64,000 bases of DNA from Betaproteobacteria bacterium (GCA_016234745.1 JACRAR010000059.1:3347-67346), one strand, 5' to 3'. Counted from the first letter of the stretch, positions 81-15,971 are shown. Translations and numbers: made by a program. Notes: a model not told the origin generated them from the letters alone.

Positions 81-2150
81 TTGCACTTCCCGACCCAGGT
101 CAGCCTAGCCGTATTGGAGGAATTGGCAGGCAAGCGCTGGATCGTCAAGACGCGGGCATATGTTCCAAAACGGCTGCGCAAAGAACAAGATGAACTGACC
201 GATTTCGAAAAGGCCGTCAAAGTTCGACGCAAAACCGTTGTCAGCAGCTTCATGTCGGATGAAGACCTGCTCCGGATCTTTGAATATGGGCAAATGGGCC
301 GCTACGTTGCCCGTGCGGTCGAGGAACACAATGCCGAGCTAACTGACGAAGACGAAAAGCTTACCCGCTATCACGTCTACCAGGTGGTCTATCGATATTG
401 GCTTCTTGCCTGTGTCGACAACGCACTCATTTCCGACAGCGGGAATTGTGGTGCTCCAGGGAAATACAGAAACCCGGGGAAAGCCAAGCGTGGAAGAACG
501 CCCGATCGTGTGCTGACCGGACATGCTCCAGACAAAGTGGGCGTCAATACCGGCCCCGATGACCGAGCCCTCATCTGGCTTGCCTGGGACAACTATGGCG
601 GCAAGCTTGGTAAATACGCAGCCGCCTACAATAAGATGCTCGAAGACTATTTCAGCAAAGGCTGGCATGAAGACGAGCACGGCTGCTGGGTACCGACAAT
701 ACATTCACTCGAGCAGCGGCCAAGCCTGGAAATTTTTCGGTATTACGTCAAACGCAAATATACCCCTGTTGATCTGCTCAAGCAGCTCATACCCAGTATC
801 ACTTGGCAACAAACCAGACGCGCATTGAAGGGAAAAGCCGCCGACAAGCTATTCGGACCCGCACAAACCTTCATGATCGACTCCACGGTAGCGGATGTCT
901 ACCTGGTCAGTACCTTCAATCCCTATTGGATCATCGGCAGGCCGATAGTCTATCTGGTGAGGGATGTCTGGTCGGGGATGATCGTCGGGGTTCATGTGGC
1001 ACTTGAAGGTCCAAACTGGCACACGGCGCGATTGGCAATTTACAACGCCTTTAGCCCCAAGGGCGAGTTTCTGCGAAGCTTCGGCTTCAATATGACCGAT
1101 GAACACTGGCCGTGCGCGCACGGCTGCCTCAGTCTGTTTCATGACCGCGGTGAATCCCTGTCGATTCCAAGCACCGACAGCGCCAATGTCCTAAGAATCA
1201 TCCTCAGCGCCTGTGCGTCATTTCGCCCGGATTCAAAAGGTCCGATCGAAACCATGTTCAATTGGCTCAACCTCGAAACCGTTCATTGGTTGCCAGGCGC
1301 TGTCCGGTCTCGTCAGCGGGAACGCGGCCAGCGCGACTATCGCCTCGATGCGACGCTCACGCTTTATCAGTTTACTCGCATCATCATTCACGCCATCCTC
1401 ACCTTTAACAGGACAGCGAATATGGGCGATCGGCTGGTCGGGCCAATCGCTGGCCTCGAGATCAAACCTACGCCAACTAACTTGTGGTGCTGGGGCCTGG
1501 AAAATCTCCATGGTTCACCGCCGCAGTGGGATCAGGACACTCTGTACACAGCCTTGCTTCCCAGCAGCATGGCCTCGATACGGGCGGACGGAATTCATTT
1601 TGCGGGGCGCTGCTACCAAGGCGCGATCTCGGACAAGGAGCAATGGCAGGAAACCGCCCGGGCGTTTCATTCCGGCAAACTGAAGGTCAAATACCATCCC
1701 AATAATCCGCAGCAGATTTTCGTGCTCAACGAGATGACGGGGAATTATGAAACGCTGAATATGCACGCCGGCCAGCAGATGCCGGAACATGTGCGTTTCG
1801 AAGAAATCGTCGATTGCCTGAAATATCGGCACTTTATCCACAAAGGGGACGAAGACGTCAGGTTGCTGGACCGGATCGGGCATAACCGGTTCCGAGACGA
1901 AGAAATCAAGAAGGCCGAGGAAACCCGCGCAAACGCGATTCCGCCGGCATCGAAGTCCGAACATCTCTCCGGGATTCAGGATAAACGCAGCTTCGAAGCG
2001 ATGGTTCACCGTCTCCTGGAGTCAGCCCAAGACATGCCGGCAGTGAATGCGCCGCGCGATGACGCCATTTCAACCGCCGCTTGTGACGCCCCTTCCGATT
2101 TGCTTTCCAAACTATTGGCCGAAACGGCCGAGGAGATTGAACATGTCTAG
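81..2150 (+). CDS. DDE transposase, TnsB/TniA (Mu/Tn7 integrase-core) family
   Basis: 689-aa ORF with rve-type catalytic signatures: FMIDSTVADVYLV (first Asp) and HDRGESLS (Glu). Length and C-terminal extension fit TnsB/MuA-type proteins. The start (TTG at 81) is uncertain. Confidence 0.8.
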   Translation: MHFPTQVSLAVLEELAGKRWIVKTRAYVPKRLRKEQDELTDFEKAVKVRRKTVVSSFMSDEDLLRIFEYGQMGRYVARAVEEHNAELTDEDEKLTRYHVYQVVYRYWLLACVDNALISDSGNCGAPGKYRNPGKAKRGRTPDRVLTGHAPDKVGVNTGPDDRALIWLAWDNYGGKLGKYAAAYNKMLEDYFSKGWHEDEHGCWVPTIHSLEQRPSLEIFRYYVKRKYTPVDLLKQLIPSITWQQTRRALKGKAADKLFGPAQTFMIDSTVADVYLVSTFNPYWIIGRPIVYLVRDVWSGMIVGVHVALEGPNWHTARLAIYNAFSPKGEFLRSFGFNMTDEHWPCAHGCLSLFHDRGESLSIPSTDSANVLRIILSACASFRPDSKGPIETMFNWLNLETVHWLPGAVRSRQRERGQRDYRLDATLTLYQFTRIIIHAILTFNRTANMGDRLVGPIAGLEIKPTPTNLWCWGLENLHGSPPQWDQDTLYTALLPSSMASIRADGIHFAGRCYQGAISDKEQWQETARAFHSGKLKVKYHPNNPQQIFVLNEMTGNYETLNMHAGQQMPEHVRFEEIVDCLKYRHFIHKGDEDVRLLDRIGHNRFRDEEIKKAEETRANAIPPASKSEHLSGIQDKRSFEAMVHRLLESAQDMPAVNAPRDDAISTAACDAPSDLLSKLLAETAEEIEHV

Positions 2151-3645
2151 AGTACTCAAGGATATCCCCGCCGACTATCAGACCATTTTGGCACCGGCCG
2201 CCTATGTGGGTAACCCGCTCATCGAGACGCTTCCGAGAATTTTCACCGAAGATGATGTCAGGGAGGACCTTCGCCATTTTCCGAAGTCAGCCTCGGCAGT
2301 CGAGCGGGCACTACCTCCTCACGAGCGGTTGCACTGCGTCTCGGCTATCGACGACCTTGTCATTCCAATGCCCGTAGCGTTTGATGTTGAAGCCGCACTA
2401 TCGGTCCTGATCCGGCGCGGTTATGCAGCGCGCAACCCCTTCAACCGGGAATGGCGCCGCAAGCATTTCCAAATCAAGGAATCCATGAGTGAACCACTCG
2501 AACAATATCAGGTTCGCTGCAAAAGCGTTCCGGCAATCATGGTCACCGGCGTCAGCGGTGGTGGCAAGACCACCCTTATCGAAAGCCTGCTGGAAATGTA
2601 CCCGCAGACCATCATTCACACGGCGTACAAGGGCAATTCGTTCAACTTCAAGCAACTTGTGTGGATTGGGGTGAACGCCAGTTTCGATGCGAGTCTCAAG
2701 GGTCTTGTGCTTGCCATGTTTGGTGCAGTGGATGCGGCGCTTGGAAAAGACTACCGCAGTCAGTTCGAAAGATCCAAGGCCTCCATCGACACCCTAATTG
2801 GTCATCTGTCCGTAGTCTTCACTACTCACCATCTTGGCGTTCTGTTCGTCGATGAAATCCAATGCCTGATGTTGCGTGGTGATGAGGAGGCAAAACTGGC
2901 ATTGAGTCTCTTCCTCAAGATCGCCAATGTCTGCAAGGTGCCAATTGTGTTTGGCGGGACCTATGCGGCCGTGAGGCTCTTCTCGAAGGTGGCGCGAAAC
3001 GCGCGCCGTGTTTGCAGTGGCGGCTATTTCGACCTTGCCTTGCCTGCATCTTTTGAAGACGTGATTTGGGACAAGCTCGTCGTCGAAGTCATCTGGAACA
3101 AATATCAGTGGGTAAATCAGCCGGCACCTCTGATGGACGACTTACGCAAGTTGCTCTTCAAGCTGACGCAAGGAATCCTGGCAATTCTGGTTGCTTTGCA
3201 TCGGGCGAGTCAGGTCTATGCGATTCGGCATGGCATGAATACAGTCGATGCCGCGGTGTTGAATAAGGTCTACGAAACGCAGTTCGTGTTGCTGCACCCG
3301 GCACTCGATGCGCTCCGATCAAACAAGAAGAATCGACTTGAAAAGTTCGAGGACCTGCTACCCCCAAAGGATCAGATGAGCACTCTGCTGCGCCCAAGCA
3401 ATGATGAAGCACTTTTGGAGCGCATCCAACGACTATTTGCAGCAGCCCAGAACGACGCTGCGACAGTGGAAAACGAGGGGGAAGAGCCAGGGAACGCGCT
3501 GTCGATTCCCAAGGCCGCCAATTCTGCAGGTGAAGCATCGCAGGCAGCAGCGCGCTTGATGGAGCAAATCCGCCTTAATCCGGCCCTAAAGGAACTTGCC
3601 CGAAGGTCTGGCTTGATTGGTAGCGAGGAGTGCGGCACAACTTAG
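2143..3645 (+). CDS. AAA+ transposition ATPase, TnsC/TniB family
   Basis: Walker A GVSGGGKTT and Walker B VLFVDEIQ. An AGGAG Shine-Dalgarno lies 7 nt upstream of ATG 2143. The start overlaps the transposase stop codon. The longer track ORF (from 2047) lies inside the transposase gene. Confidence 0.8.
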   Translation: MSRVLKDIPADYQTILAPAAYVGNPLIETLPRIFTEDDVREDLRHFPKSASAVERALPPHERLHCVSAIDDLVIPMPVAFDVEAALSVLIRRGYAARNPFNREWRRKHFQIKESMSEPLEQYQVRCKSVPAIMVTGVSGGGKTTLIESLLEMYPQTIIHTAYKGNSFNFKQLVWIGVNASFDASLKGLVLAMFGAVDAALGKDYRSQFERSKASIDTLIGHLSVVFTTHHLGVLFVDEIQCLMLRGDEEAKLALSLFLKIANVCKVPIVFGGTYAAVRLFSKVARNARRVCSGGYFDLALPASFEDVIWDKLVVEVIWNKYQWVNQPAPLMDDLRKLLFKLTQGILAILVALHRASQVYAIRHGMNTVDAAVLNKVYETQFVLLHPALDALRSNKKNRLEKFEDLLPPKDQMSTLLRPSNDEALLERIQRLFAAAQNDAATVENEGEEPGNALSIPKAANSAGEASQAAARLMEQIRLNPALKELARRSGLIGSEECGTT

Positions 3646-3717: not shown

Positions 3718-4209
3718 ATGATGCATAAGAAGGATGATTTGACTTGGCGGTTGCTCATGACCATTCCCGCAGGAATTCTCATGTTCATCGGCCTTGCTGT
3801 CTTGGCAAATGGCGGATCTGACCGCGGAACACCCAGCCGCATTGCTCTCATGAGTCCAGGGTGCGAATTGGTACGCATGACCGGCGTCAGAATTGAGGTA
3901 GTCAGGGGCGACGGTACCTGCGTAATCAGGGGATATGTTCGTCAAAGAGTTTTTTCTAGCGACGTACTGATTGATCTAGGTACTGGAATTGTCTTGGATA
4001 TTGGCGGACACCAAGTGGCTGGACATGTGGCGGACGAGTCTTTCAACGCGCCCTTGGGGTCCGGCCAATTACAGACCATGTGGATCGGGGCTGGAGTCCT
4101 CGTAGCGTCGGCAGCGCTCCTGGCGTTTGCCTTCTGGCCTTTTGGACGGGATACCTACACGGGCCGGAATAATAACGACGGAACGGGCAATGGAGGTAGT
4201 TCATCATGA
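3718..4209 (+). CDS. Hypothetical membrane protein (N- and C-terminal TM helices flanking a beta-rich domain)
   Basis: GGAG directly upstream of tandem ATGs. Hydrophobic segments IPAGILMFIGLAVLA and WIGAGVLVASAALLAFAFW. The stop overlaps the next start (ATGA at 4206-4209). Confidence 0.5.
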   Translation: MMHKKDDLTWRLLMTIPAGILMFIGLAVLANGGSDRGTPSRIALMSPGCELVRMTGVRIEVVRGDGTCVIRGYVRQRVFSSDVLIDLGTGIVLDIGGHQVAGHVADESFNAPLGSGQLQTMWIGAGVLVASAALLAFAFWPFGRDTYTGRNNNDGTGNGGSSS

Positions 4210-4640
4210 AAGACGTACCTGACAACATCTTACAGCAACTTCAAGAAATCACTCCCAAATCCCTTGATGACATCATCCGCACGAACAGGGACAAGGCTAA
4301 GCTTTATCTGAGCACGGAGGCAGAGCTTACTGCCTTGCAGGGACCCATGCCCATTGGATTGGTTAAGGGAAATATTAGCCACTGGAGTTTTATCACATTT
4401 TTCCTGACCCAAAAATCTTGGGCGGGCGTATACCTGACCGGCTTCAATGAAGCAGAGAACTCGTCGTGGATGACTTCAGCGGTGACCGCAATTAACAGGA
4501 CGGCGGTGCTGACGAGGAGCGGTTCGATCTATATCTTGGTTGGTGAGCCTTCCACCGAACCGGACCTGCCGTTCATCTGTGCCACTTTGAACGGCTGGGG
4601 CGTCGGCCAGCACTTCGGGGTGCCGCCGTTATTTTTCTGA
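4206..4640 (+). CDS. Hypothetical soluble protein, translationally coupled to the upstream membrane protein
   Basis: GGAGG lies 9 nt upstream of ATG 4206, with an ATGA overlap to the previous ORF. I recognise no motif. Confidence 0.5.
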   Translation: MKDVPDNILQQLQEITPKSLDDIIRTNRDKAKLYLSTEAELTALQGPMPIGLVKGNISHWSFITFFLTQKSWAGVYLTGFNEAENSSWMTSAVTAINRTAVLTRSGSIYILVGEPSTEPDLPFICATLNGWGVGQHFGVPPLFF

Positions 4641-4699
4641 GGACATCCAAAGGGATGTCGGTATGCGGTGACCTTGTCTACTTGAGGAGAAAATTCAAA

Positions 4700-5362
4700 A
4701 TGAAACGCGCAAAAAAGAGGCCGCCGTTACTCCTTAGGCGGTTTTTCGCTGTACCGCGAACGATGAGTCGCGCCATTAATAGGGCGGTGGCTTCTGTTTC
4801 CGTTTCGAATCGGAAGACAGCGAGGCGGAAGAAAGAGTATGCGTTGCGCGATCTGCTCGCCCAAATGCCGAATGGTTTCCCAATGGACGAAGAGATGCGT
4901 ACATGGGACCAAATGGAGCCGGTCGGCAGCGAGTTCGGTGCGGTCGAGATCTGGGAGGAAGACGGCGAATTCGTCGCCAGATGCAACGATCCTGAGGTGG
5001 CCAGTGAAGGCCGGACAGAGGAAGAGGCGCTGGCCAATCTGAGGGAGGCGTTAAGTCTCTACTACGAGGGCCAGAACAAAGACGCTTACATTGATCTAGC
5101 CCACCGCGTTAGCCAGCTCGAAGATCGAGTGCGTAGCCACGGAATCATGCTGAATGAGGCTGCGGCTCAGGTAAGCGCCATATCAAGAGGTCGCATAGGA
5201 GTGGCCAAAGACCAGGTCGAAGTACCGGAAGACATCGACGCCAGAAACGATGAAGTGAAATGCCTATTCACTAACGGAGACCACGACTGGCAACGCGACG
5301 GCCAGACCCTGACCGCGGTCCGCTGGACATGCAGCAAATGCGGGGTGACGCGCCTATTGTGA
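4700..5362 (+). CDS. Mosaic antitoxin-like protein (MazE/AbrB-tail-like, HicB/UPF0150-like and DUF2281-like segments)
   Basis: GAGGAG lies ~10 nt upstream of ATG 4700; the track ORF starts at 4655. Three segments are reminiscent of antitoxin families: LRDLLAQMPNGFPMDEEMRTWDQMEPVGSEF (MazE-type tail), EIWEEDGEFVARCNDPEVASEGRTEEEALANLREALSLYYE (HicB fold) and GVAKDQVEVPEDIDARNDEVKCLF (DUF2281-type tail). There is no adjacent toxin gene. Confidence 0.45.
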   Translation: MKRAKKRPPLLLRRFFAVPRTMSRAINRAVASVSVSNRKTARRKKEYALRDLLAQMPNGFPMDEEMRTWDQMEPVGSEFGAVEIWEEDGEFVARCNDPEVASEGRTEEEALANLREALSLYYEGQNKDAYIDLAHRVSQLEDRVRSHGIMLNEAAAQVSAISRGRIGVAKDQVEVPEDIDARNDEVKCLFTNGDHDWQRDGQTLTAVRWTCSKCGVTRLL

Positions 5363-5600
5363 GTGTGCTTTTGTCCTGGCACTCGCGGCCGCCATGTTAC
5401 GCTCATGGCCCGATTGGCCAACGCCTCAACATCCAGAGTCAGGTGAATGGGATGCTGTTGCTGCGGATGCGGTGTTTGATCCAATTGCTGATGTTGGGAC
5501 CGCTTCAAAGTCTTGACGCTGCTTTATTTCGACGAACGAATAGTCAATTCTGTTTGTTGTTTTGGTGAAAGCTCCAGCCCTAGGTCCAGCCTGTTCTCAC

Positions 5601-6587
5601 CTAGTATCCGAGGTAGGGGATGGATGATTCAATTACATCGGCAGCGATACCATGCTGTTGGAGCAACCGCTCGACGGACTCACGGCGCTTCGTCTTGTCA
5701 GGGTGCGGCCCAACAATGACTTTCCGAATCGGCAAGACCGCGTTGCGCCCTAGATTCGAGGTGCCGAACAGCTTGACATAGGGAATCAATAGACCAGATC
5801 GGGGCCTAAAGAACAACTCTTTCTGCGGGCGAGCCTCGCCATCACGCTTCTCCTCCCGCCATACCCGTGGGACAGAACGCAAAGCTGCAATCCTCACTTC
5901 AGACTCCTCCTGAAAGCCTCGGTGCTTGGAACGGATACTGAGTTGTACGAGCGGCTGGTACATTTGCTCAAGCAGTTCACGCGCCCCGCTAACTACAAAT
6001 TGCCTTATCGCATCCTGAACCTTGTGTTCATCCTCCAAGGTCTCTGGTAGCGGAGTCCCGTGCTCACTCGAACCATCGTAGTGATAGTCGACATCGCACA
6101 AAAGAAGCGTCTGATGATGGAAGGCCTTGCTCTCCAATTCGAGCAAACTCTCGATGCCAGTCGTTTCGAAGACGATCGCATATCCGCCATCTTGTCCGTA
6201 GCCTCGCCATTGGCTAAGCAGGCCGTCGTTGGGATCAGTCCGTGGAGGTGCACTGAACGAGGCAATATATGGATCGTCCAATTCCAGCGACAGTTCCATG
6301 ATTCCTGAGTGAAGGCGCTGCGAAATATCTGCTGCGCGTTCCCTGATCTCCTCTTCACTACACTCCACCGAATGTGGCGTCGTCGCCAACTGGGACTTCA
6401 AGGCATCCAGGGTCCACTGCGACAGCAGAACTGGAAGTCTGCGCTTAAGATATCCAATTTGCTCCTCGGCGTCGTTCAGGTAAGCAATGCTCGTGGCGTA
6501 TATTTTCTGGCTCGTAATGATGCCAGTCAACCCAGCAGCATTCGTGTAGTGGTAGAGCAATGGCTTTTCTTCTGAGACTTTGCCCAT
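5601..6587 (-). CDS. DUF2971 family protein
   Basis: The N-terminal motif LLYHYTNAAGLTGIITSQKIYATSIAYLNDAEE matches the DUF2971 signature (YHYT...LND.E). GGGAG lies ~8 nt upstream of ATG 6587. Confidence 0.65.
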   Translation of the reverse strand: MGKVSEEKPLLYHYTNAAGLTGIITSQKIYATSIAYLNDAEEQIGYLKRRLPVLLSQWTLDALKSQLATTPHSVECSEEEIRERAADISQRLHSGIMELSLELDDPYIASFSAPPRTDPNDGLLSQWRGYGQDGGYAIVFETTGIESLLELESKAFHHQTLLLCDVDYHYDGSSEHGTPLPETLEDEHKVQDAIRQFVVSGARELLEQMYQPLVQLSIRSKHRGFQEESEVRIAALRSVPRVWREEKRDGEARPQKELFFRPRSGLLIPYVKLFGTSNLGRNAVLPIRKVIVGPHPDKTKRRESVERLLQQHGIAADVIESSIPYLGY

Positions 6588-6614
6588 AGAGGTCTCCCAT
6601 CCCTGTTTGTTGTG

Positions 6615-7802
6615 TTATTGGGCAAGGCCGCTAGCGATGTTCTCCATTTCGCTGGAACAACTGCGGACCCGCTCGACAATTTCTCTCACTGACATCCCGC
6701 CGTCTGCGTGGACCCGCATGGTTTCTGTGAGGTGCAGCATGCGGCCGATCTTCCGCAGCTTCGCCTTCAATCCATCCTGAAGCTCATCAATGTTGTAGTA
6801 GCTGATCTGGGCAATCGTGTGTCCGAGCGTCGCCCCCTCCGACTGAAGATCCTTGTGACGGGTGTTCGCCATATCGTCTGCGCGAGAGGCTAGGCCGGCC
6901 AATTTGCGTGCTGTCGATTTTATGAGCTCACGCACGGCACCGAGCGCCGCCGTCATGGGTATCGGGTCGATGCGCTCGGCCATTAGATTGGAGGCTAACT
7001 CGCCAATCTGCTTGTTCGCAGCCCTGATGTCGCTGCCCGAACCAATAAAGAGTGGCATGTTGGCGAAGTGGTCCAACTGATCGGCGAGTTCTTTCATCTG
7101 GGTGTCGACCGCTTCCTCGACCGCAACTTGCGATGCGGCCAGATGCCGCAATTGACTTGCGGACGACTCGAACGACCAGCGCCACTGGTCCAGCCACGGG
7201 TTCACCTGGCGCTGGTCGGCTTCATCCACGAAAATGAGCACCTCCGCTAGGATCCGCGCGAGTTCTGTATATAGCTCGGACTTTGCCTTGGACGCGGCGT
7301 CGACCTGTGATGCATTCGACTGCTCCAGATAATCCTTGACCTTCTCGATGACTTCGTGGGGCTCAGCAGGCCGTGAGGTGGTCAAGTGGCGAATGTACGG
7401 TGTGTTGTTGCTGTAGTAGAGCGGCTGCGAGCCTTTGGGCACCGACAATACAAGTACGACGGCGTCGGCCTCAACGGCAAATCGGGCCTCGGGAATGATT
7501 GCCGGTTTCACGGTAGCTCTTGAGATTCCCTCCAGGCGTTGCATGGCGTCATCACGTCCCTTTGAATTCCAGCACCCGGGCAATCCGACCAGGTCGCCGT
7601 CATCCGACACCCCAATCAGGATCATTCCCCCGTTGGAAGACGCGAATGCGGCAATCTCTTTCCCCAGGTCGCGGGTGTTCTCAGGAAAGTTGACCTTGTA
7701 CTCCATGTCTTGGCCCTCGCCTCGGGACCGCAGGACGGAGAGGTCGCGCGACAGCGCCGCGTCGGCCCAGTCTGGAATCTGCGATTTAATAGGTGTCGTC
7801 AT
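6615..7802 (-). CDS. AlbA_2 (Schlafen-core / divergent AAA_4) domain protein with an all-helical C-terminal domain
   Basis: N-terminal GEGQDMEYKVNFPENTRDLGKEIAAFASSNGGMILIGVSDDGDLVGL is the typical AlbA_2 pattern (E.K......l.k.i.AfaN..GG.l.iGv.d.g.i.G). The start overlaps the upstream stop (ATGA at 7799-7802). Confidence 0.6.
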   Translation of the reverse strand: MTTPIKSQIPDWADAALSRDLSVLRSRGEGQDMEYKVNFPENTRDLGKEIAAFASSNGGMILIGVSDDGDLVGLPGCWNSKGRDDAMQRLEGISRATVKPAIIPEARFAVEADAVVLVLSVPKGSQPLYYSNNTPYIRHLTTSRPAEPHEVIEKVKDYLEQSNASQVDAASKAKSELYTELARILAEVLIFVDEADQRQVNPWLDQWRWSFESSASQLRHLAASQVAVEEAVDTQMKELADQLDHFANMPLFIGSGSDIRAANKQIGELASNLMAERIDPIPMTAALGAVRELIKSTARKLAGLASRADDMANTRHKDLQSEGATLGHTIAQISYYNIDELQDGLKAKLRKIGRMLHLTETMRVHADGGMSVREIVERVRSCSSEMENIASGLAQ

Positions 7803-8836
7803 GCTTCAGCATTTCCTAAAGCGGAATGGCGAATTGCGACGCGGGTGCCTGAGAAGGAATAGTCGTCAGTACACAATGCTGCCATGTAAGGCTCATTAAA
7901 GCTCTTTAACACGTAGTCGTGAAGAGATACGAAAATATTTGATTGAAGCGTTGTAAACCCACCACCGAGAACTTCGTGGCGCAGAGAGGCGCATTTCCAC
8001 GCATTGCGCAAACTAAAGGCAGTGGAGGGCGTGTCAGCAAAGTCCAGTACATCAAATAGCTGTTTCCCCACCAATACACGTCCCTTGCTTGAGTGGTCGG
8101 TTAGCCGAAAAAAGCGGTCTACCTCTATCCCCACAAAGTCAGAACGTACGATAGAGGCGACCTTTCCAGTCGCGTGATTCGTGATCATCGGAATTGCGGC
8201 AAGATTACCCATCAACTTTTTGAATAATTCATCGCCGGCCGTTATGGGGCCTTTTCCGCAGCACCGGGCAACTATTGGAGAAATTGCAGGTACTCGCCCC
8301 GGCCCAATATCAAAACCCTCGATCAAATCGCAGGTGATCTTAAGGGGTAGTTCCAGTCTCATCGTATCGTCGAACTCATCGAGTCCATCCGGATGGACTA
8401 TAGGCGCGCTTGGCAGGAAGACAATTGCTGGCGACTTGGAGAGTACAGCCAGTAGTGCCCTCAATAGATGGCGGGCATGTTGAGCAACATCGAAGTCATT
8501 TAAGTCCTGGAGCGAATAGGAATACCACCACTCGTCGCCAATTGCCTTTATCAGGAACAACCTGTCCAGTTCGTATGCGCATGGCTGTTGGTTTATCTGC
8601 GCGGCTTCATTTTCCGCGATGAGAAGGTCAAGAAATAGCTTCTCCGTCGCGATCAGGCCACGCGCGAATTCCTCATGGGCTAATGACGTAGCCAGACCCC
8701 ATTTTGCGGCAAACGTGGCTAGCCGTTCCTTGATGACGGTGGAGTCAGCTATGTCAATTGAAATTGATATAAATTTTGTCAACTGTACTATCGGGCGGAC
8801 CGTATCCGAACTATTCGAACCTGTCTGCACAGTCAT
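7799..8836 (-). CDS. Class III nucleotidyl cyclase-like (cyclase homology domain) protein
   Basis: Three motifs in the order expected for class III cyclases: ISIDIADSTVIK (cf. F.DI.GFT), LIKAIGDEWWY (cf. K.IGD..M) and DFVGIEVDRFFRLTDHSSKGRVLV (cf. D.wG..VN.AsR.es....g.i.vs). AGGAG lies 8 nt upstream of ATG 8836, so the longer track start at 8926 is unlikely. Confidence 0.5.
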   Translation of the reverse strand: MTVQTGSNSSDTVRPIVQLTKFISISIDIADSTVIKERLATFAAKWGLATSLAHEEFARGLIATEKLFLDLLIAENEAAQINQQPCAYELDRLFLIKAIGDEWWYSYSLQDLNDFDVAQHARHLLRALLAVLSKSPAIVFLPSAPIVHPDGLDEFDDTMRLELPLKITCDLIEGFDIGPGRVPAISPIVARCCGKGPITAGDELFKKLMGNLAAIPMITNHATGKVASIVRSDFVGIEVDRFFRLTDHSSKGRVLVGKQLFDVLDFADTPSTAFSLRNAWKCASLRHEVLGGGFTTLQSNIFVSLHDYVLKSFNEPYMAALCTDDYSFSGTRVAIRHSALGNAEA

Positions 8837-8886
8837 ATTGGCGCTCCTGCAGCAATTTGGGGCGACCGAAGTCGCCCCAAGACCGT

Positions 8887-9072
8887 TCAACGGTGGCTGT
8901 CCGGTGTTACTTTCACGGGTGTCCAACCGTGGCCTGGCTTGGTCGTGGGCGGCAGCGGCCGGTTGTCCGGCACAGTCGTGTAATTCGGCTGTCTGCCGCC
9001 TCTGGGTCCGACTTCCTGAAAGATACCACCACCGTTTCCAGTATTCTGGCCGGGCTTTTTCGATATTGCCAT
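8887..9072 (-). CDS. Small Gly/Pro-rich protein (61 aa), first ORF of the cassette
   Basis: AAAGGAAA lies 7 nt upstream of ATG 9072. Product is MAISKKPGQNTGNGGGIFQEVGPRGGRQPNYTTVPDNRPLPPTTKPGHGWTPVKVTPDSHR, which is low-complexity, so coding status is uncertain. Confidence 0.3.
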   Translation of the reverse strand: MAISKKPGQNTGNGGGIFQEVGPRGGRQPNYTTVPDNRPLPPTTKPGHGWTPVKVTPDSHR

Positions 9073-9294
9073 GTCAATTTCCTTTCGAGAAAAAAGCAAC
9101 TTGCACAACCCGGACAGCGAAAACCTTTGTTGACCTACTCCCACTTAAGTGTGTATTGTGGGAACGTCTGCATTCAACGTAAGGCGACAGGCTTCTCCGG
9201 GATCGGTGGCCTGTCTCGGCCGTTCTTGGGAGTTCCAGTCCTTCGAGCGGCCTTTTCATTGGTATCATTGCTCCTCCCCCATTGATCTCTTTCA

Positions 9295-11640
9295 TCACGC
9301 CTTGCCCCGTACCTGCGTACGCGCTCGAACGGCCAGGTTCTGTGCCTGAAATCTGTTCCGGACGATCTGCGCTACTTCGTCATAGACCGGCGCCTTACTT
9401 TCTGGATCGGCGATCGTGATAATCAATGAGAAGGGCTGCGGCTTGAAAGCAGCCTCTTCCTTCTCGATGCCGTGCCGTGTCAACAAGCGCAGCATTAGAC
9501 GCCAACGGTTCCCACGCTCGCCACTATCGTTGAGGCGTCCGTGATAAGTACGCACCGGCGCCCACTTCCGTAGTTTCTCCACCTGGTAAGACTCATAGAG
9601 TTGGCCGGGATTGCGATGTTCGGGGGGGACAAGTCCCGTGAACACCTGCTTTATTTCGCCAGTATCACGCGACACGCGGTCGCGATATACGCCAAGGTGA
9701 GCTTCGATGTGGGTCTCGCAGTATTCGGTGCCCCACCGGGAGCCCCGTGCAGGGGCGAAGGCCAGCGTCATCCAGATTTCCCCGAAGTACTTGCCGTCCC
9801 GCTTCAGCGATGCAGGATAGGGGAAGTTATCCCACTCCAGGAAGTAGCCAGGTCGCAGGGTGTCGTCGAACACCAGCGTAGCGGTGTGCGGAGTGCATTC
9901 CAGGCAGTACGGCAGCCCTGCCGGAAGGCCAAAGCCGAGAAAGTTTTCCTCTCCGTCGGGAACGCGGGTCCCTGACCGTGGATCTCGTGCATGGTGCGTG
10001 AGCAGTGCTCTAGCTAATACCGGGGTTGGTGTTGGTGTAATCTGGTGATATATCTGCGCCAGCGTCCGTGAGACAAGCGGTGTGGCAAAACTGGTTCCAA
10101 GATCCTCCACCAGGCCAGCGCCTGTGACCGACCGAATTCCATGCACATGTACCGCGTCGGTCGAGCACGAGCCACCGTAATGCACCAAGTCGGGTTTGAT
10201 GATATGGTTCGGGCCAGCCCCGTGACGCGAGAATGCGGATGGCTGATGTTGCTTCGGCCCATTAGCCTTGTAGCCGACATGTGAAACCGACCCAACGGTG
10301 ATGCCCAGAACGCTGTCAGCCGGAGAGGTGATACGACCGGAATCGAGTTGTGTCAGGGTCCGGGGAAAGTCGAGAAGCGGTGGCGTCGCATAGTTTCCAG
10401 CGCTGATCACAAACGATACCTGGTACTTCTCCTGCAGATTGTCCAATTCTTCAGCCATTTCCGAAAACTCGTCCATCGAGCAGATGCTGTCCGTCCCTAG
10501 TGAAAAATTCCAGACCTTGTACTTGTTGGCGTGCAACCGCAGCGCGGACTCGAGTGACGCTAACAACTCGTGCTCGAGTAGCGCCGACGTCTCGCCACGT
10601 GCCGGGTCATCATTCGGGATCACCTGCAGATCGAACACAGCGCAAGGGCTATCATCAACACCCGCGAGCGTCGGGTTTAGCACGCCACCCCAGCAGATAA
10701 GTCCAGCCACAAAGGTTCCGTGATCTGTGTTCTGGTCATACGGCGCAGCGACGTCGCAAATACGGCCCATAACCCATGAGTCCAAGGCAGGGATGTTCTT
10801 TGAAATACCACTATCCACCACGACCACGACAGGTACGTCTGCGTCGCTTGTATCCCGCGACGGCATGGGGGGAAGCGCCTGCTGATTCATCATGCGCGGC
10901 CGGATCATACGTATCAGAGGCATGTTGGAGATGGTACGCACCCCGATGATGCGCGACAGCGCTTCGACGTCGGCCACCGTATTGCAATCGGCCGCGTAGA
11001 CAAAACTGCGCGCAGAATAGCCGCGCTGGTCAAGACGAATCCCTCTCTCCACACAGACGGCTTCGAAATTGGCAACGAGGGCCAGATGATCATCATCGGC
11101 ACCATAATCAAACAGCCGAATGCGGGTAACAAATCTGTCCCGGCGGCGCGGGCTACGGCGCAATATGTCTTCCGCATTCATCCCACGGCGCCGAAGGGTC
11201 GGTGTCACCGGTTCGATGCTCTCGATGCAAGAAATCTCCTTGATAATCTGCTCGGAGGTATTGCTCTCGATCATTTGGGTAAGGCGATCCAATCCCTCAG
11301 GTGTGGCTTTGATGAACAACTCGCCAAGCTGACCTGCGCTGATGATAGGGCAGGATTGATCGGAAAACAGCTTCTCCGGCCGATGGCTCTTGGCGGCAGC
11401 CTTCGCCATGACCTTGACGCGGACGGGTGCGGATTTTGTCAGCTTGAGTTGAGGCAGGATGGCTTCTCTAATGGCGCCGAGTTGGTTGGATAGTCGTTTG
11501 CGGTACTTGGCGTCGACTTCGCGGAAGGGTTGAGGTGGAGCTCCGCCGCCTGGAACGCGGCGCTCCGTTCCCTGCTTGGGCATGATCAGCTTGATCGGCA
11601 GGCGTTCGCGGAGTTGGTCGCTTGGATTGTTTTCAGCCAT
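9295..11640 (-). CDS. ietS: S8 (subtilisin-like) serine peptidase, IetS-like
   Basis: Catalytic triad contexts VVVVDSGI (Asp), DHGTFVAGLI (His) and GTSFATPLVS (Ser). The ~260-aa N-terminal domain is of unknown function. The start overlaps the upstream AAA+ gene by 8 nt. Confidence 0.75.
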   Translation of the reverse strand: MAENNPSDQLRERLPIKLIMPKQGTERRVPGGGAPPQPFREVDAKYRKRLSNQLGAIREAILPQLKLTKSAPVRVKVMAKAAAKSHRPEKLFSDQSCPIISAGQLGELFIKATPEGLDRLTQMIESNTSEQIIKEISCIESIEPVTPTLRRRGMNAEDILRRSPRRRDRFVTRIRLFDYGADDDHLALVANFEAVCVERGIRLDQRGYSARSFVYAADCNTVADVEALSRIIGVRTISNMPLIRMIRPRMMNQQALPPMPSRDTSDADVPVVVVVDSGISKNIPALDSWVMGRICDVAAPYDQNTDHGTFVAGLICWGGVLNPTLAGVDDSPCAVFDLQVIPNDDPARGETSALLEHELLASLESALRLHANKYKVWNFSLGTDSICSMDEFSEMAEELDNLQEKYQVSFVISAGNYATPPLLDFPRTLTQLDSGRITSPADSVLGITVGSVSHVGYKANGPKQHQPSAFSRHGAGPNHIIKPDLVHYGGSCSTDAVHVHGIRSVTGAGLVEDLGTSFATPLVSRTLAQIYHQITPTPTPVLARALLTHHARDPRSGTRVPDGEENFLGFGLPAGLPYCLECTPHTATLVFDDTLRPGYFLEWDNFPYPASLKRDGKYFGEIWMTLAFAPARGSRWGTEYCETHIEAHLGVYRDRVSRDTGEIKQVFTGLVPPEHRNPGQLYESYQVEKLRKWAPVRTYHGRLNDSGERGNRWRLMLRLLTRHGIEKEEAAFKPQPFSLIITIADPESKAPVYDEVAQIVRNRFQAQNLAVRARTQVRGKA

Positions 11641-12793
11641 GATCCTCCCCTTCCCGTTTTGACAGCCGGTGGATGGTTGCCTTCGACAGCCCCGTTAGTT
11701 CTGCAAGCATGCCCAGACTATACAAACGCTGATCGCGCTCCCTCAGCGCATGCACAACATCCGCCACGTCCTTGTTGGCAAACCGAGCGACGAATCTTGC
11801 TCCGTCCTCCGCCCCGATCGCCAGATTCTGCAATACTGGAAAGGTGTCCTTGAGTTGCAGTGGTTGGCCAGTGGAAAAATGGCGGCGCTTCAATCGAGCA
11901 CAGGCCTCGCGGATATCGGAGCCAGAAAATCCTTCGGATAAATCTGAAAGGACAGTGAGATCACGCTGTGAAAATTGAGTAGGCTCGATGAAATCGGCCC
12001 ACATCCGTTCTCGCTGTTCAGGTGACGGCAGCTGCAGCGCCAAGCGGTAGGTGAAGCGCCGCCACACGGCGGCATCTAACAGCGTTTCGTGGTTTGTAGC
12101 CGCAAGGACAATAGATTGACGGCCGAGTGTGTCGAGGTTCTGTAGAAAACTATTGACCACGCGCTTCAACTCACCCAACTCCTGACTGTCGCTGCGCAGC
12201 TTGGCGATTGCGTCGAACTCATCAAGGAATAACACGCAGGGCGTTTTTGCGGCGAAGTCGAATAGAGCGCGGATGTTCTTCGACGTGCTGCCGAGATAAG
12301 ATGAAATCAAACCATCCAGACGGGCGACATAGAGTTCAAGCCCTAACTCCTTGGCGATGTGACGCGCCAGACGACTCTTGCCAGTGCCAGGCGGACCGTA
12401 CATGAGAAAGCTGAGAGCGCCTGACAATTCGGTGCTGTCCAGCGTAGCGTAGCTTTTCGCCACACTGGCGAATTCATTGACTACATCCCACTGCGGCTGC
12501 GAGAGCTGGACGGGCGGCTCTTGCATAGTTTTGAGCTTGACATGCTCAACGAGGGGAAACCGGCTCTCTGCATCAACCGGCAATGCCGTTGAAAATCGGA
12601 CATCGGCCGGGCGCAGCTGTTTATCCGTCTCCTCAAGCATCTTGCGCAAACGATGGGCTGTACTCGTCTCGCCCTCATTTTCGAGCTTTTCGGCGAGAAA
12701 GGCCGTATAATTTCTGACCTTATCTAGGTCGAGACGAAGTGCGCCATTGACGATACGCACAAGTTCATTAATGAAACGAATATCTGTACTCAT
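11633..12793 (-). CDS. ietA: AAA+ ATPase, IetA-like
   Basis: Walker A GPPGTGKS, Walker B VLFLDEFDAI and second region of homology ATNHETLLDAAVWRRF. I prefer the ATG at 12793 (MSTDIRF...) over the TTG at 12922, whose N-terminal extension is low-complexity. Confidence 0.75.
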   Translation of the reverse strand: MSTDIRFINELVRIVNGALRLDLDKVRNYTAFLAEKLENEGETSTAHRLRKMLEETDKQLRPADVRFSTALPVDAESRFPLVEHVKLKTMQEPPVQLSQPQWDVVNEFASVAKSYATLDSTELSGALSFLMYGPPGTGKSRLARHIAKELGLELYVARLDGLISSYLGSTSKNIRALFDFAAKTPCVLFLDEFDAIAKLRSDSQELGELKRVVNSFLQNLDTLGRQSIVLAATNHETLLDAAVWRRFTYRLALQLPSPEQRERMWADFIEPTQFSQRDLTVLSDLSEGFSGSDIREACARLKRRHFSTGQPLQLKDTFPVLQNLAIGAEDGARFVARFANKDVADVVHALRERDQRLYSLGMLAELTGLSKATIHRLSKREGEDHG

Positions 12794-13340
12794 GAAACGA
12801 TTATGATATACAGAGAGACGATTGTCAACCCAAAAGAAACGGTGGTGGCGGGTTAATGGAGATGAAGGCGGCACGCTGTCAGGGTGATCAGCGGAGCCAT
12901 GCGGCATCCTTGTCACGCCCAAACTTGGAGAATGCAGATAGCTACTGTCGAGCGCCGACGACGTTCTAGTCTCGCCTTCGCTTGCCCCAGAGGGCAGCTA
13001 TGAAGTTTTGTCTCCACCATTGCAAGACATTGGAATGCACGGCCACATTTACAAGCCTATGAATTTAAAGGATCGTGTGTCTTCCTCTTTATTTGTGCAT
13101 ACCAATATGCGCCAAATATTTCGACTAATCGCCCTTTCGTGCCTATTGTTCGCGCCAGTCCTGGTTTATTTTCGCCGGTACGGAAAAATCTTGATGCAAA
13201 TCAACGATACTCTCTATGCATGAATGATAACGTCCGTGCATAGCTGGAGGCCAAACCTGCTTGTCTTGGCATGGCAGGCCTCAACTGATCATTCTTGGTG
13301 GCGTCCTGCCCGTAAATGAACTCGGAGACCCGTTCTTCAA

Positions 13341-15971
13341 ATGAAGCGCTTTGACTCGCAGGCACCCCTGTGGTCGGCCGTACTGATCATCACGGCTGTC
13401 GCGTTGATGGCTTTCTGGCGCGTCGAGCTCGATTACCGCAACACCATGGAAGCAGCGAAGAGCCTCCTGACGACGCTGGCGCGCTCGGGCGATGAACAAC
13501 TCTCCGGGCAACTCCAGAGCCTGGAAGTGCTGCTGCTCGGCATTGATAGCCGGCTGCGCGTCACTGCACCTGCAGACAAAGACAAGCTAGTCGACGAAAT
13601 CAAGACGCAGCTTAAATTTGTCAAGGGCACGCGGGTTCTCATTGTGACCAACCCGGCTGGTCAGGCGATATTGTCCACCCGTCCCGACCTGTTCGGTTTC
13701 GATGCCTCGGCCCGGCCCTATTTCACTGTGCCGCGCAACGCAGTGGGCAAGGACCGTTTGCACCTGATCGGGCTGACCCCCACCCGGGATGGCACCCACG
13801 TGCTTTGGGCAACACTCGCCAGACGGGATGCGCAAGGGCGGTTCGACGGCGTGGTCGCGGTCAGCCTGCTGCCGGAGTTCCTCGACCCGCTGATGCGATC
13901 CATACGTCCTGACAGTCCAAGGAGCACCGCTGTTCTTGTGGGCAGCGACCAAACCATTCTGTATCGCCTCCCCGACGCCGAACAACATGTTGGTAAATCG
14001 CTGCGCGGCTCGCCCGGAATCAGCGCACACCTGGAAAGCGGGGACAAGGCGACGATTCAAACCCAGGTTGCCGTCACGGATAACGTCCAGCGCATTACCG
14101 CATTCCGGACTGTGCAACCGTACCGCATCAACGTCACAGTGGGATTACCACTAGAGGAAGTGCTGGCACCCTTTTATCAGCGTCTTTGGGTGCATCTGGG
14201 AATACTGCTCTTTACCACCACGCTGATCCTCAGCCTGATGTTCTTCCTGCGGCGCTCGGCCACCCGGTTGCGCCTCTTGTCGGATGTTTTCGAACACAGC
14301 GGCGAAGGCATCGTCATCACCAATGCGGAAAATCTCATCGTTGCCATCAATAAGGCATTCTCGCGGCACACCGGGTATTCCGAAGAGGATGTGATTGGCA
14401 AGAATCCACGCATCCTGTCCGCAGGCAATACCAGCCCGGAAACCTATCGCCAGATGTGGCAAGACATTACCACCAAGAACAGTTGGCAGGGCGAACTCTG
14501 GGATCGCCGCAAGAACGGCGAGACCTATCCGAAGTGGCTTGTCATCTCGGCGGTACGCGCAGCAAATGGAAAAACATCGCACTACATCGGCAATTTTGTT
14601 GATATCTCCGCGCGCAAGGCCTCCGAGGAGAAAATGCGCCATCTGGCAAATCACGATCCATTAACCGGATTGCTCAACCGTTTCAGCCTGCACGAAAGAC
14701 TGGCGCATGCTTTGAGCTTCTGCAAACGCAGCAACCGGCAACTGGCGCTGATGCTGATCGACCTGGATCGATTCAAGATCATCAACGATACCCTCGGCCA
14801 TCAGGTCGGCGACAAACTGCTGGTACAGGTCGCGCACCGCCTGCGCGAAGCGGTGCGCGAAAGCGATATCGTGGCGCGCCTGGGCGGCGACGAATTCGTC
14901 GTGGTTCTCGCCGAGATCGATACTCCTGCCGATGCCGCCAACGTCGCGGCGAAGATCGCCAAGTCGATCTCTGCGGTTTACTTTATCGACGGAACCGAGC
15001 AACGTTCATCGCCGAGCATCGGCATCTGCATCTACCCTGACGACGCCAGCGAGGCCAACGACTTGCTGAAGAAAGCGGATGTGGCGATGTACCATGCCAA
15101 ATCGCTGGGACGCGGCAATTACCAGTTTTTTACCGAGGAAATGCAGGTGGCAGCCACCCGGCGCATTGAACTCGAAGCGGACTTGCGCAAAGCAGTGGAA
15201 CAGCGGCAGTTTCTCCTGCATTATCAGCCGCAGTTGGATCTGCGCAGCGGCAGGCTGGTTGGCGTCGAGGCGTTAATTCGCTGGCAACACCCTACCCGCG
15301 GTTTGGTGCCGCCCATCGAATTCATTCCGCTGGCTGAGGAAACCGGCCTGATTTTGCCGCTCGGCGAGTGGGTCTTGCGCGAGTCATGCCGGCAGTTGCA
15401 AGCATGGCAGGCAAACGGGCTGGCGCACATTGCCGTCTCCGTCAATCTCAGCGCCAAGCAGTTCCTCGACAAGACGCTGCCGGAACAGATTGACGCCATT
15501 CTCATGGAATTCGGCGTGCCCTCCTCCCACTTGATCCTGGAAGTCACCGAATCGATGTCGATGGAATCGCCAACCGACAGCATCGCCATGATGCAACGCC
15601 TCAGCGATCGCGATCTGGCATTGTCGATAGACGACTTCGGTACCGGTTATTCGTCGCTGGCCTATCTCAAGCTGTTCCCCATCAGAACCCTGAAGATCGA
15701 CCGCTCTTTCGTCAAGGATATCGAAACCGATCAGAATGACGCCGACATTTGCGATGTCACGGTATTGCTGGCCCATAAACTTGGCCTGGATGTCGTCGCC
15801 GAAGGCGTCGAAAGTGCAGCCCAGATGAAGTATCTGCTCAGCATCGGCTGCGAAAAAATCCAGGGATATCTGATCAGCAAGCCCTTGCCTGCGGCCGCAG
15901 CCGAGGAATTCATGCGCAGCAGCGCGCCGATCACGGGACTGGGCACAGTGGATCTCTGGGAGAACACCTGA
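13341..15971 (+). CDS. Membrane sensor: periplasmic Cache-like domain, PAS, GGDEF, EAL (c-di-GMP cyclase/phosphodiesterase)
   Basis: Two TM segments flank a ~250-aa periplasmic domain. PAS region ([39 protein letters not shown]), RLGGDEF motif, and EALIRW plus [13 protein letters not shown] motifs. Confidence 0.9.

Follow-up and report, generated by a model that had tools for sequence, protein, structure and literature searches.

Does a tightly packed stack of genes next to a known defence pair work as one machine, or is it a row of modules that arrived separately? The question is raised by positions 5601–9072 of a 64,000-nucleotide stretch of DNA from a Betaproteobacteria bacterium (GCA_016234745.1, JACRAR010000059.1:3347–67346), referred to here in its entirety as the window. 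Four co-directional open reading frames (ORFs) lie there on the minus strand, encoding, in order of reading, a Gly/Pro-rich small protein of 61 aa, a divergent class III cyclase-homology-domain protein of 345 aa (cyc345), a prokaryotic Schlafen-type protein of 395 aa (AlbA_2-395) and a DUF2971 protein of 328 aa (DUF2971-328). A first-pass annotation of the sequence had proposed a single signalling cassette in which the cyclase-like protein would generate or sense a signal and AlbA_2 and/or DUF2971 would serve as effector. Our analysis instead indicates that these are probably four independently distributed accessory genes, stacked beside ietAS in what is plausibly the variable, horizontally acquired part of a Tn7-like element, and not one machine.

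The main evidence comes from surveying the three large families at about 110 independent loci. The AlbA_2-395 family was represented by 43 loci in species-representative genomes, where neighbours within 10 kb were identified with family hidden Markov models (HMMs); 0 of the 41 other loci carried an ORF of the cyc345 or DUF2971-328 family. Likewise, none of the 42 other cyc-superfamily loci had an AlbA_2-395 or DUF2971-328 neighbour or a recurring partner, and this included 39 further metagenome loci, in which no ORF matched either family HMM and no partner recurred. Around 26 DUF2971 loci (25 with DNA, comprising 4 genomic or metagenomic and 21 viral contigs, plus one gene table), neither an AlbA_2-395 nor a cyc-family ORF was present nearby. 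The neighbours of AlbA_2-395 homologues vary from locus to locus and include AAA_21, a ComM-type Mg-chelatase-family ATPase, AbiEii, a methyltransferase, DUF3800, a STAND NTPase and RTX, among others. We also considered the genes upstream of AlbA_2 homologues, such as a 377-aa ORF at locus L021, as distant relatives of cyc345 and rejected them, as they encode AAA_21, ComM-type ATPase, AbiEii, methyltransferase and other proteins instead. Nor did the loci examined reveal any small protein or effector that recurs as a partner downstream of the cyc-family genes. The first-pass annotation had itself named non-conservation of the trio as a unit as grounds for refuting its proposal; none of the roughly 110 loci keeps the trio, and the notion of one cassette, pairing a cyclase generator with an AlbA_2 and/or DUF2971 effector, gives way to families that each occur alone beside unrelated neighbours.

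The sole relative that preserves the peptide–cyclase–AlbA_2 order, L004, lacks DUF2971. It aligns without gaps to window positions 6584–11681 (5098 nt, 95.4% DNA identity) and retains ietS, the peptide gene, cyc345 and AlbA_2, with the homology ending at the DUF2971 start codon. Because L004 belongs to the same lineage (95% DNA identity), it does not provide independent support for a cyc345/AlbA_2 pair; it does show that the remaining genes persist without DUF2971. Between the two sequences, nonsynonymous and synonymous changes number 7 and 84 in ietS, 25 and 47 in the Schlafen gene, 20 and 20 in cyc345, and 1 and 8 in the peptide gene. By this count of codon changes, cyc345 is evolving much faster than the neighbouring genes.

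Judged by sequence comparison, all four ORFs are genuine genes and not chance ORFs, because each has full-length homologues elsewhere. The layout described in the first-pass annotation was confirmed. Each of the four minus-strand ORFs is preceded by a Shine-Dalgarno-like purine run (AAGGAAA, AGGAG, AGGAA and GGGAG, 7–13 nt 5′ of the four starts), the cyc345 and AlbA_2 genes overlap by ATGA at 7799–7802, and a 27-nt spacer (6588–6614) separates AlbA_2 from DUF2971; intergenic spacers within the stack measure 27–50 nt. For cyc345, the ATG start yielding 345 aa is preferred over a TTG start that would extend the protein to 375 aa (to position 8926). The extra stretch would run into a hairpin and the peptide ORF, its changes (3 synonymous and 3 nonsynonymous) form no coding pattern, and homologues begin at the ATG.

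AlbA_2-395 (6615–7802, minus strand) combines an N-terminal nuclease-type domain with a C-terminal helical domain of about 250 aa. Its AlbA_2/Schlafen-like identity, already proposed from the sequence, is well founded: the SLFN_AlbA_2 profile PF04326 matches residues 29–146 with E = 2.8e-16 and 60.5 bits, against a cutoff of 25.3, and the Ex4ExK motif is intact. Specifically, the catalytic motif Ex4(E/D)xK is present as E29-GQDM-E34-Y-K36. In an alignment of 34 sequences, E29 and E34 are kept in 33 of 33 ungapped sequences, D67 in 31 of 34 and K36 in 25 of 34; the window protein keeps the full Ex4ExK motif and D67. The family comprises 278 homologues, of which 120 are listed at 45–94% identity, mostly with more than 90% coverage, and conservation runs along its full length, C-terminal domain included. 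This domain has no family match, and its only similarities are weak ones to designed coiled coils.

Ex4(E/D)xK is the defining motif of prokaryotic Schlafen (pSlfn) nucleases, which were shown in 2026 to be antiphage transfer RNA (tRNA) nucleases; 97% of pSlfns carry a fused putative sensor domain of variable kind, and in 17% the fused domain lacks annotation (PMC13056530). Cash, a prokaryotic Schlafen that cyclic tetra-adenylate (cA4) switches on, has been described together with Schlafen clusters whose C-terminal domains are of unknown kind (PMC13462974). With pSlfn5/RorSlfn5 (PMC13056530) and Cash (PMC13462974), AlbA_2-395 shares the N-terminal AlbA_2/Slfn nuclease domain, the Ex4(E/D)xK motif and the presence of a C-terminal accessory domain. 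Like the pSlfn systems, it is encoded by a gene that stands alone, amid changing neighbours, in defence and mobile-element surroundings. It differs from them in its C-terminal module, which is not Ig-like, Csx15, histidine kinase or helix-turn-helix (HTH), and which matches no Pfam family or PDB sequence. By these features AlbA_2-395 matches the recently described single-gene pSlfn defence kind, of which it would be a new member with a putative nuclease and defence role. In such a protein, a phage cue perceived by the helical C-terminal domain would set free the N-terminal Ex4ExK nuclease, and the released nuclease would cut tRNAs, leading to translation arrest.

Two further observations concern the AlbA_2-395 family. 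Seven loci from Comamonadaceae, Limnobacter and Erythrobacter (L030–L034, L041 and L042) share a block of about 6 kb that is identical among them and surrounds a homologue with 35% identity, indicating a recently spread mobile element. In an Algihabitans metagenome-assembled genome (L021, about 5500–11161), ietS/ietA are divergent to the 377-aa AAA_21 gene, and an AlbA_2-395 homologue follows 3 nt after the latter. This is a second, independent ietAS/Schlafen-family juxtaposition and a possible ATPase–Schlafen two-gene unit.

The DUF2971 protein (5601–6587, minus strand) was assigned correctly from the outset: PF11185 matches it with E = 2.9e-7 and 32.2 bits, above the Pfam cutoff of 22. A weak Tox-ART-HYD1 match covers residues 11–32. 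Across 26 DUF2971 sequences, H13-Y14-T15, Y130/Y136 and E228-x-E230 are invariant, and the HYE-type ADP-ribosyltransferase (ART) motifs, a conserved Tyr and ExE, are found in the window protein. The DUF2971-328 family has 1636 homologues and is present on 60 plasmids. DUF2971 has been described as an HYE-clade ART-like family, kin of DarT, AbiGi and Tox-ART-HYD1 (PMC12522546). Aristaios, a 316-aa DUF2971 protein from a Lactococcus plasmid, is a validated single-gene abortive-type antiphage system (PMC11381338).

The window protein shares with Aristaios (PMC11381338) and the DUF2971 ART-like family (PMC12522546) a size of about 316–328 aa, one domain spanning most of the protein, H-Y-ExE-type ART motifs and an occurrence as solo genes on mobile elements. 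It differs from Aristaios in coming from a betaproteobacterium; its plasmid homologues are 24–29% identical, and the two are likened by domain and motifs, not by sequence alignment. No Lactococcus plasmid occurs among the DUF2971 matches listed at E ≤ 1e-5. The protein thus matches a recently described single-gene defence kind as a putative new, Aristaios-resembling member. It would ADP-ribosylate a nucleic-acid or protein target and thereby abort infection in the manner of Aristaios. The earlier remark that no named system of this composition is known is outdated for two of the components, pSlfn (PMC13056530, PMC13462974) and the DUF2971 protein Aristaios (PMC11381338). A PADLOC search recovered IetS at 1476 bits and matched none of the four genes, because its 2023 models predate pSlfn and Aristaios.

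Among relatives of the DUF2971 protein, two homologues (55–60% identity; L103 629–2370 and the P0130 contig) lie within about 3 kb of a Gp49 plus HTH pair resembling HigB/HigA. In L103 the homologue is immediately downstream of the pair, and relaxase and ArdC genes are also near on one of the two contigs.

The third large protein, cyc345 (7799–8836, minus strand), gave no match in Pfam, NCBIfam, PADLOC, PHROGs, phmmer or a profile search of PDB sequences. Even at E ≤ 1, the window protein has no match to PF00211 (Guanylate_cyc), and one of 70 relatives matches it, with E = 0.001. An AlphaFold2 model built from 8 sequences had a predicted local distance difference test score (pLDDT) of 51 and weak cyclase matches; it was superseded by a model from a 70-sequence alignment, with a pLDDT of 91.6 and a predicted template modelling score (pTM) of 0.89. 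Using Foldseek against the PDB, we observed that all of the top 50 matches to this model were class III adenylyl or guanylyl cyclase domains (E = 9e-8 to 4e-6, probability 1.0), with target-normalised template modelling (TM) scores of 0.49–0.74 for isolated catalytic domains. In the viral structure library BFVD, the best matches were giant-virus cyclase-domain proteins. The class III cyclase-like call, made earlier from the sequence, is thus borne out by the fold, and according to the model the whole of cyc345 is one cyclase homology domain with large insertions.

Class III cyclases carry the motifs FxDIxGFT and KxxGD, which contribute two metal-binding Asp residues and a base-reading Lys, and YDxWGxxVNxAxR. 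In the 70 cyc345 relatives, D28, S32, K36, K97, G100, D101, E102, W104, R231, D233, D240, F243, R244 and G257 are invariant, and the family motifs read ISIDxxGSTxxK, KxIGDExW and RxDxxGxEVDRFFRxxxxAxPGxVxVG. An hhalign comparison with six real class III cyclase domains was non-significant (E = 0.094, probability 0.6%), yet it fell in the expected register, placing ISIDxxGST onto FADxxGFT and KxIGDE onto KxIGDA. The spacing D233-x6-D240-x3-R244 equals the canonical D-x6-N-x3-R, which we take to be that of D1018/N1025/R1029 of mammalian adenylyl cyclase. The canonical Asn position (GxxVNxAxR) is occupied by the invariant D240 in 'EVDRFFR', and R244 is likewise invariant.

On this mapping, D28 and D101, which the first-pass annotation had singled out as candidate metal ligands and which prove invariant, are the predicted metal-binding Asp pair, and D240 would be the Asn equivalent. 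cyc345 thus appears to keep the adenine-type Lys/Asp pair and the Arg, but with Asp in place of Asn, and by analogy we predict that it uses ATP, as a nucleotidyl cyclase or transferase. The protein would form a homodimer, as canonical class III cyclases do, with D28 and D101 binding two metal ions, K97 and D233 reading adenine and R244 stabilising the transition state. No canonical class III cyclase was found among the fetched loci that could have served as an internal reference.

Compared with class III cyclases including PycC, cyc345 shares the catalytic fold (Foldseek probability 1.0), the Asp pair, the Lys/Asp base-reading pair and the Arg at canonical spacing. It differs from class III cyclases in about 150 extra residues present as insertions, in the invariant Asp for Asn and in lacking a PF00211 match. 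It also departs from Pycsar, having no PADLOC match to PycC at E ≤ 1 and no adjacent cyclic nucleotide monophosphate (cNMP)-binding, transmembrane or TIR effector. As regards CBASS, none of the four proteins matches a CD-NTase or Cap effector in PADLOC or Pfam.

Relatives of cyc345 are few. A word-indexed search of 5.8 billion proteins returned only 8, and a profile search of 1.84 billion cluster representatives returned 162 at E ≤ 1e-3. They fall into forms of about 330 aa and forms of about 500 aa, the latter with an uncharacterised N-terminal extension of about 170 aa. The homologue in Sulfurisoma sediminicola (58% identity) stands solo, with a divergent DUF4238 gene on one side and, on the other, an island of restriction–modification (RM), SNF2-helicase, AAA_15/21 and integrase genes, an arrangement repeated in a related contig; a 38%-identical homologue is located on a contig resembling an integrative and conjugative element (ICE). 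In the metagenome cyc loci, adjacent genes encode DUF3800, a DEAD helicase, HEAT repeats, Mrr, PLD, AraC/GyrI and DUF6998; other neighbours are an EAL-like protein with a receiver domain and a hemerythrin-like protein. At two loci, L001 (2689–9900) and L003 (3–5806), the closest homologues (58%) are flanked by the divergent DUF4238 gene and by a gene for a giant AAA_16-containing protein of 2013 aa in L001 and at least 1552 aa in L003, the DUF4238/AAA_16 pair being conserved between these related loci.

The small YjzC-like protein (8887–9072, minus strand) is encoded by the first gene after the 222-nt gap downstream of ietS. It matches phrog_3202 over its full length (E = 1e-22) and no Pfam family. 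Eight of the nine changes relative to L004 are synonymous, one is nonsynonymous, and 8 of 9 fall at codon position 3. Read in either alternative frame, the changed codons would include 0/9 and 2/9 synonymous ones, respectively. This pattern points to a real gene under strong purifying selection. Homologues with 57–71% identity occur on 88 plasmids, and distant ones are annotated as YjzC family. On three plasmids, the homologue (L100 2992–3171, L101 5001–5186 and L102 2828–3007) is the first gene directly after a divergently oriented pair of HTH and ImmA/IrrE regulator genes, with unrelated cargo behind it. Apart from its full-length phrog_3202 match and plasmid homologues, the window peptide differs from these cases in having no adjoining HTH plus ImmA/IrrE pair. 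The peptide gene may serve as a conserved leader in cargo operons that stress or phage would induce; in the stack it would be a separate module, of a type common on plasmids and in phages. Regarding the cargo itself, the genes behind the homologue on these three unrelated plasmids encode DUF3892 or a multiubiquitin–ThiF–DUF6527 set.

Between the peptide gene and cyc345 lies a GC-rich hairpin (8857–8880, minus strand) with a perfect 10-bp stem and a TTCG loop. It starts 7 nt after the peptide stop, before the cyc345 Shine-Dalgarno sequence, with no T-tract behind it, and was not called as an intrinsic terminator. The surrounding 59 nt have a folding energy of −27.8 kcal/mol (z = −3.3), and the stem is near-identical in L004. 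The hairpin could be an attenuator or an RNA-stability element.

Several points weigh against reading the stack as four independent modules. The four genes are probably one transcript in the window, given their tight packing and the lack of promoter or terminator signals exceeding shuffled expectation between them, and cyc345 and AlbA_2 may be translationally coupled via the ATGA overlap. The window lineage has only two members, the window and L004, which are not independent of each other, and non-co-occurrence elsewhere is no proof of functional independence within this lineage. Cash, activated by a cyclic nucleotide (cA4), is a precedent for cyclase-to-Schlafen logic (PMC13462974). Moreover, the wider cyc superfamily is also found beside an EAL-like protein with a receiver domain, PAS and a hemerythrin-like protein, and because it occurs beside such signalling genes, a defence role of cyc345 is putative.

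This last point bears on an alternative in which part or all of the stack is non-immune. Here, cyc345 would be a divergent signalling adenylyl cyclase, carried as cargo and modulating host cNMP, and AlbA_2 a nucleic-acid-binding regulator, not a nuclease. The signalling-type neighbours of the superfamily, which extend to ABC-transporter genes, and the lack of cyc-family relatives on viral contigs are consistent with this view, as are the RecG-like or HTH-regulator names that databases often give to AlbA_2 proteins and the replacement of K36 of Ex4ExK in 9 of 34 family members. However, the close cyc345 subfamily occupies the RM/integrase island and an ICE and, beside ietAS, plausible Tn7-like cargo, and among the superfamily neighbours are also Mrr, PLD, DEAD and UvrD helicases, type I methyltransferases, AAA_21 and PIN. 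In addition, the window Schlafen protein keeps the complete motif and D67, and the fast evolution of cyc345 (20 nonsynonymous to 20 synonymous changes, compared with 7 to 84 for ietS) is more typical of conflict genes. We regard this alternative as a whole as unlikely; for cyc345 itself, given the signalling contexts of the wider superfamily, a non-immune role is a serious possibility.

The overlap between cyc345 and AlbA_2 could also reflect a lineage-specific pair, in which cyc345 would make a cyclic or linear nucleotide upon infection and the C-terminal domain of the coupled Schlafen protein would bind it, triggering tRNA cleavage, with DUF2971 and the peptide as bystanders. Besides the ATGA overlap, this view draws on the retention of both genes in L004, where DUF2971 is missing, on the full catalytic-type residue set in cyc345 and on the example of the cA4-gated Schlafen Cash (PMC13462974). 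It is set against 41 loci at which full-length AlbA_2-395 homologues, C-terminal domain included (45–64% identity), have no cyclase-like neighbour within 10 kb, and 42 loci at which cyc345 homologues are solo. L004, being 95% DNA-identical, does not count as independent, and the Schlafen C-terminal domain gives no recognisable nucleotide-binding fold signal. The pair is accordingly a quite improbable explanation. As for the four genes forming a single new defence system, their co-directional tight packing in a defence island beside ietAS speaks for it, but it is scarcely credible given that no two of the three large families co-occur in about 110 loci, that the closest relative lacks DUF2971, that Aristaios and pSlfn proteins act as single genes in published tests (PMC11381338, PMC13056530) and that the peptide family is scattered over unrelated plasmid and phage contexts. 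We thus return to four accessory modules that probably share a transcript and, we infer, function independently within this operon. The sequence and structure comparisons establish that the genes are real, what folds and domains they encode, which motifs are kept and that the families do not co-occur; the enzymatic activities and defence roles are predictions built on these.

The ietS gene (9295–11640, minus strand), found by PADLOC, and ietA (11633–12922, minus strand) flank the stack and lie outside it. Together they encode the subtilase IetS, scoring 1476 bits, and the AAA ATPase IetA, which matches the NCBIfam model IteA (E = 9e-114) with 380 bits, below the curated cutoff of 510. IetAS is reportedly a system of Gao et al. 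2020. The pair directly adjoins the four genes and marks a defence island, as the first-pass annotation had recognised, without being a component of the stack; it stands beside an AlbA_2-395 gene at one other locus only (L021), divergently and with an AAA_21 gene in between.

At the start of the window, on the plus strand, lie a TnsB-like gene (81–2150; Mu-transpos_C, E = 9e-5) and a TnsC/TniB-like ATPase gene (2047–3645; AAA_22, E = 1.4e-10; TniB, E = 2e-7). TnsA and TniQ were not found in the window, and no transposon ends were identified there by a search with the TGTCTTCC motif seen in L004 and inspection of 12880–13400. As the first-pass annotation had proposed, it is plausible that the stack lies in the cargo of a Tn7-like element, itself unmapped. 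The GC content of the first ~15 kb is about 54–57%, compared with 58–64% for most of the remaining window, and GGDEF/EAL signalling genes begin at 13341. Between the TnsC-like gene and the stack (3718–5362, plus strand) are three small ORFs of 163, 144 and 235 aa, of which only the 235-aa ORF has a match (DUF7387, and a weak HicB-like PHROG); no TniQ/TnsD was recognised there, although this is the expected place for such a gene in a Tn7-like element. In L004, the sequence beyond the homology (5093–5400) holds, on the opposite strand, 51 aa of a TniQ-like N-terminus as a fragment, then three TGTCTTCC repeats, followed by groES/groEL. The segment has the look of a Tn7-like end that was inserted upstream of groESL and has decayed.

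What remains new in this locus is a rare orphan cyclase-like family that escapes profile searches, has on paper an intact catalytic residue set and is carried by mobile elements. One could go further and see in cyc345 and its ~160 relatives a new, partner-less branch of class III cyclases engaged in mobile-element/phage conflicts, forming an unusual product by virtue of the Asn-to-Asp change and acting either as a single-gene module or, in this element, as a recruited signal generator for the translationally coupled Schlafen nuclease; this is a speculative proposal that we consider doubtful. If true, the recruited-generator option would be the first Schlafen under class III cyclase control.

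More generally, tight operon-like packing in a defence island says little for a multi-gene system, and here the neighbourhood survey dissolves the apparent cassette into single-gene modules, two of which were experimentally described only in 2024–2026, so that the older defence HMM set used here lacks them. The leads that emerge are the orphan cyclase-homology family, a Schlafen subfamily with a new helical putative sensor domain, and a small plasmid and phage protein that often heads cargo operons next to HTH/ImmA switches and is under strong purifying selection.

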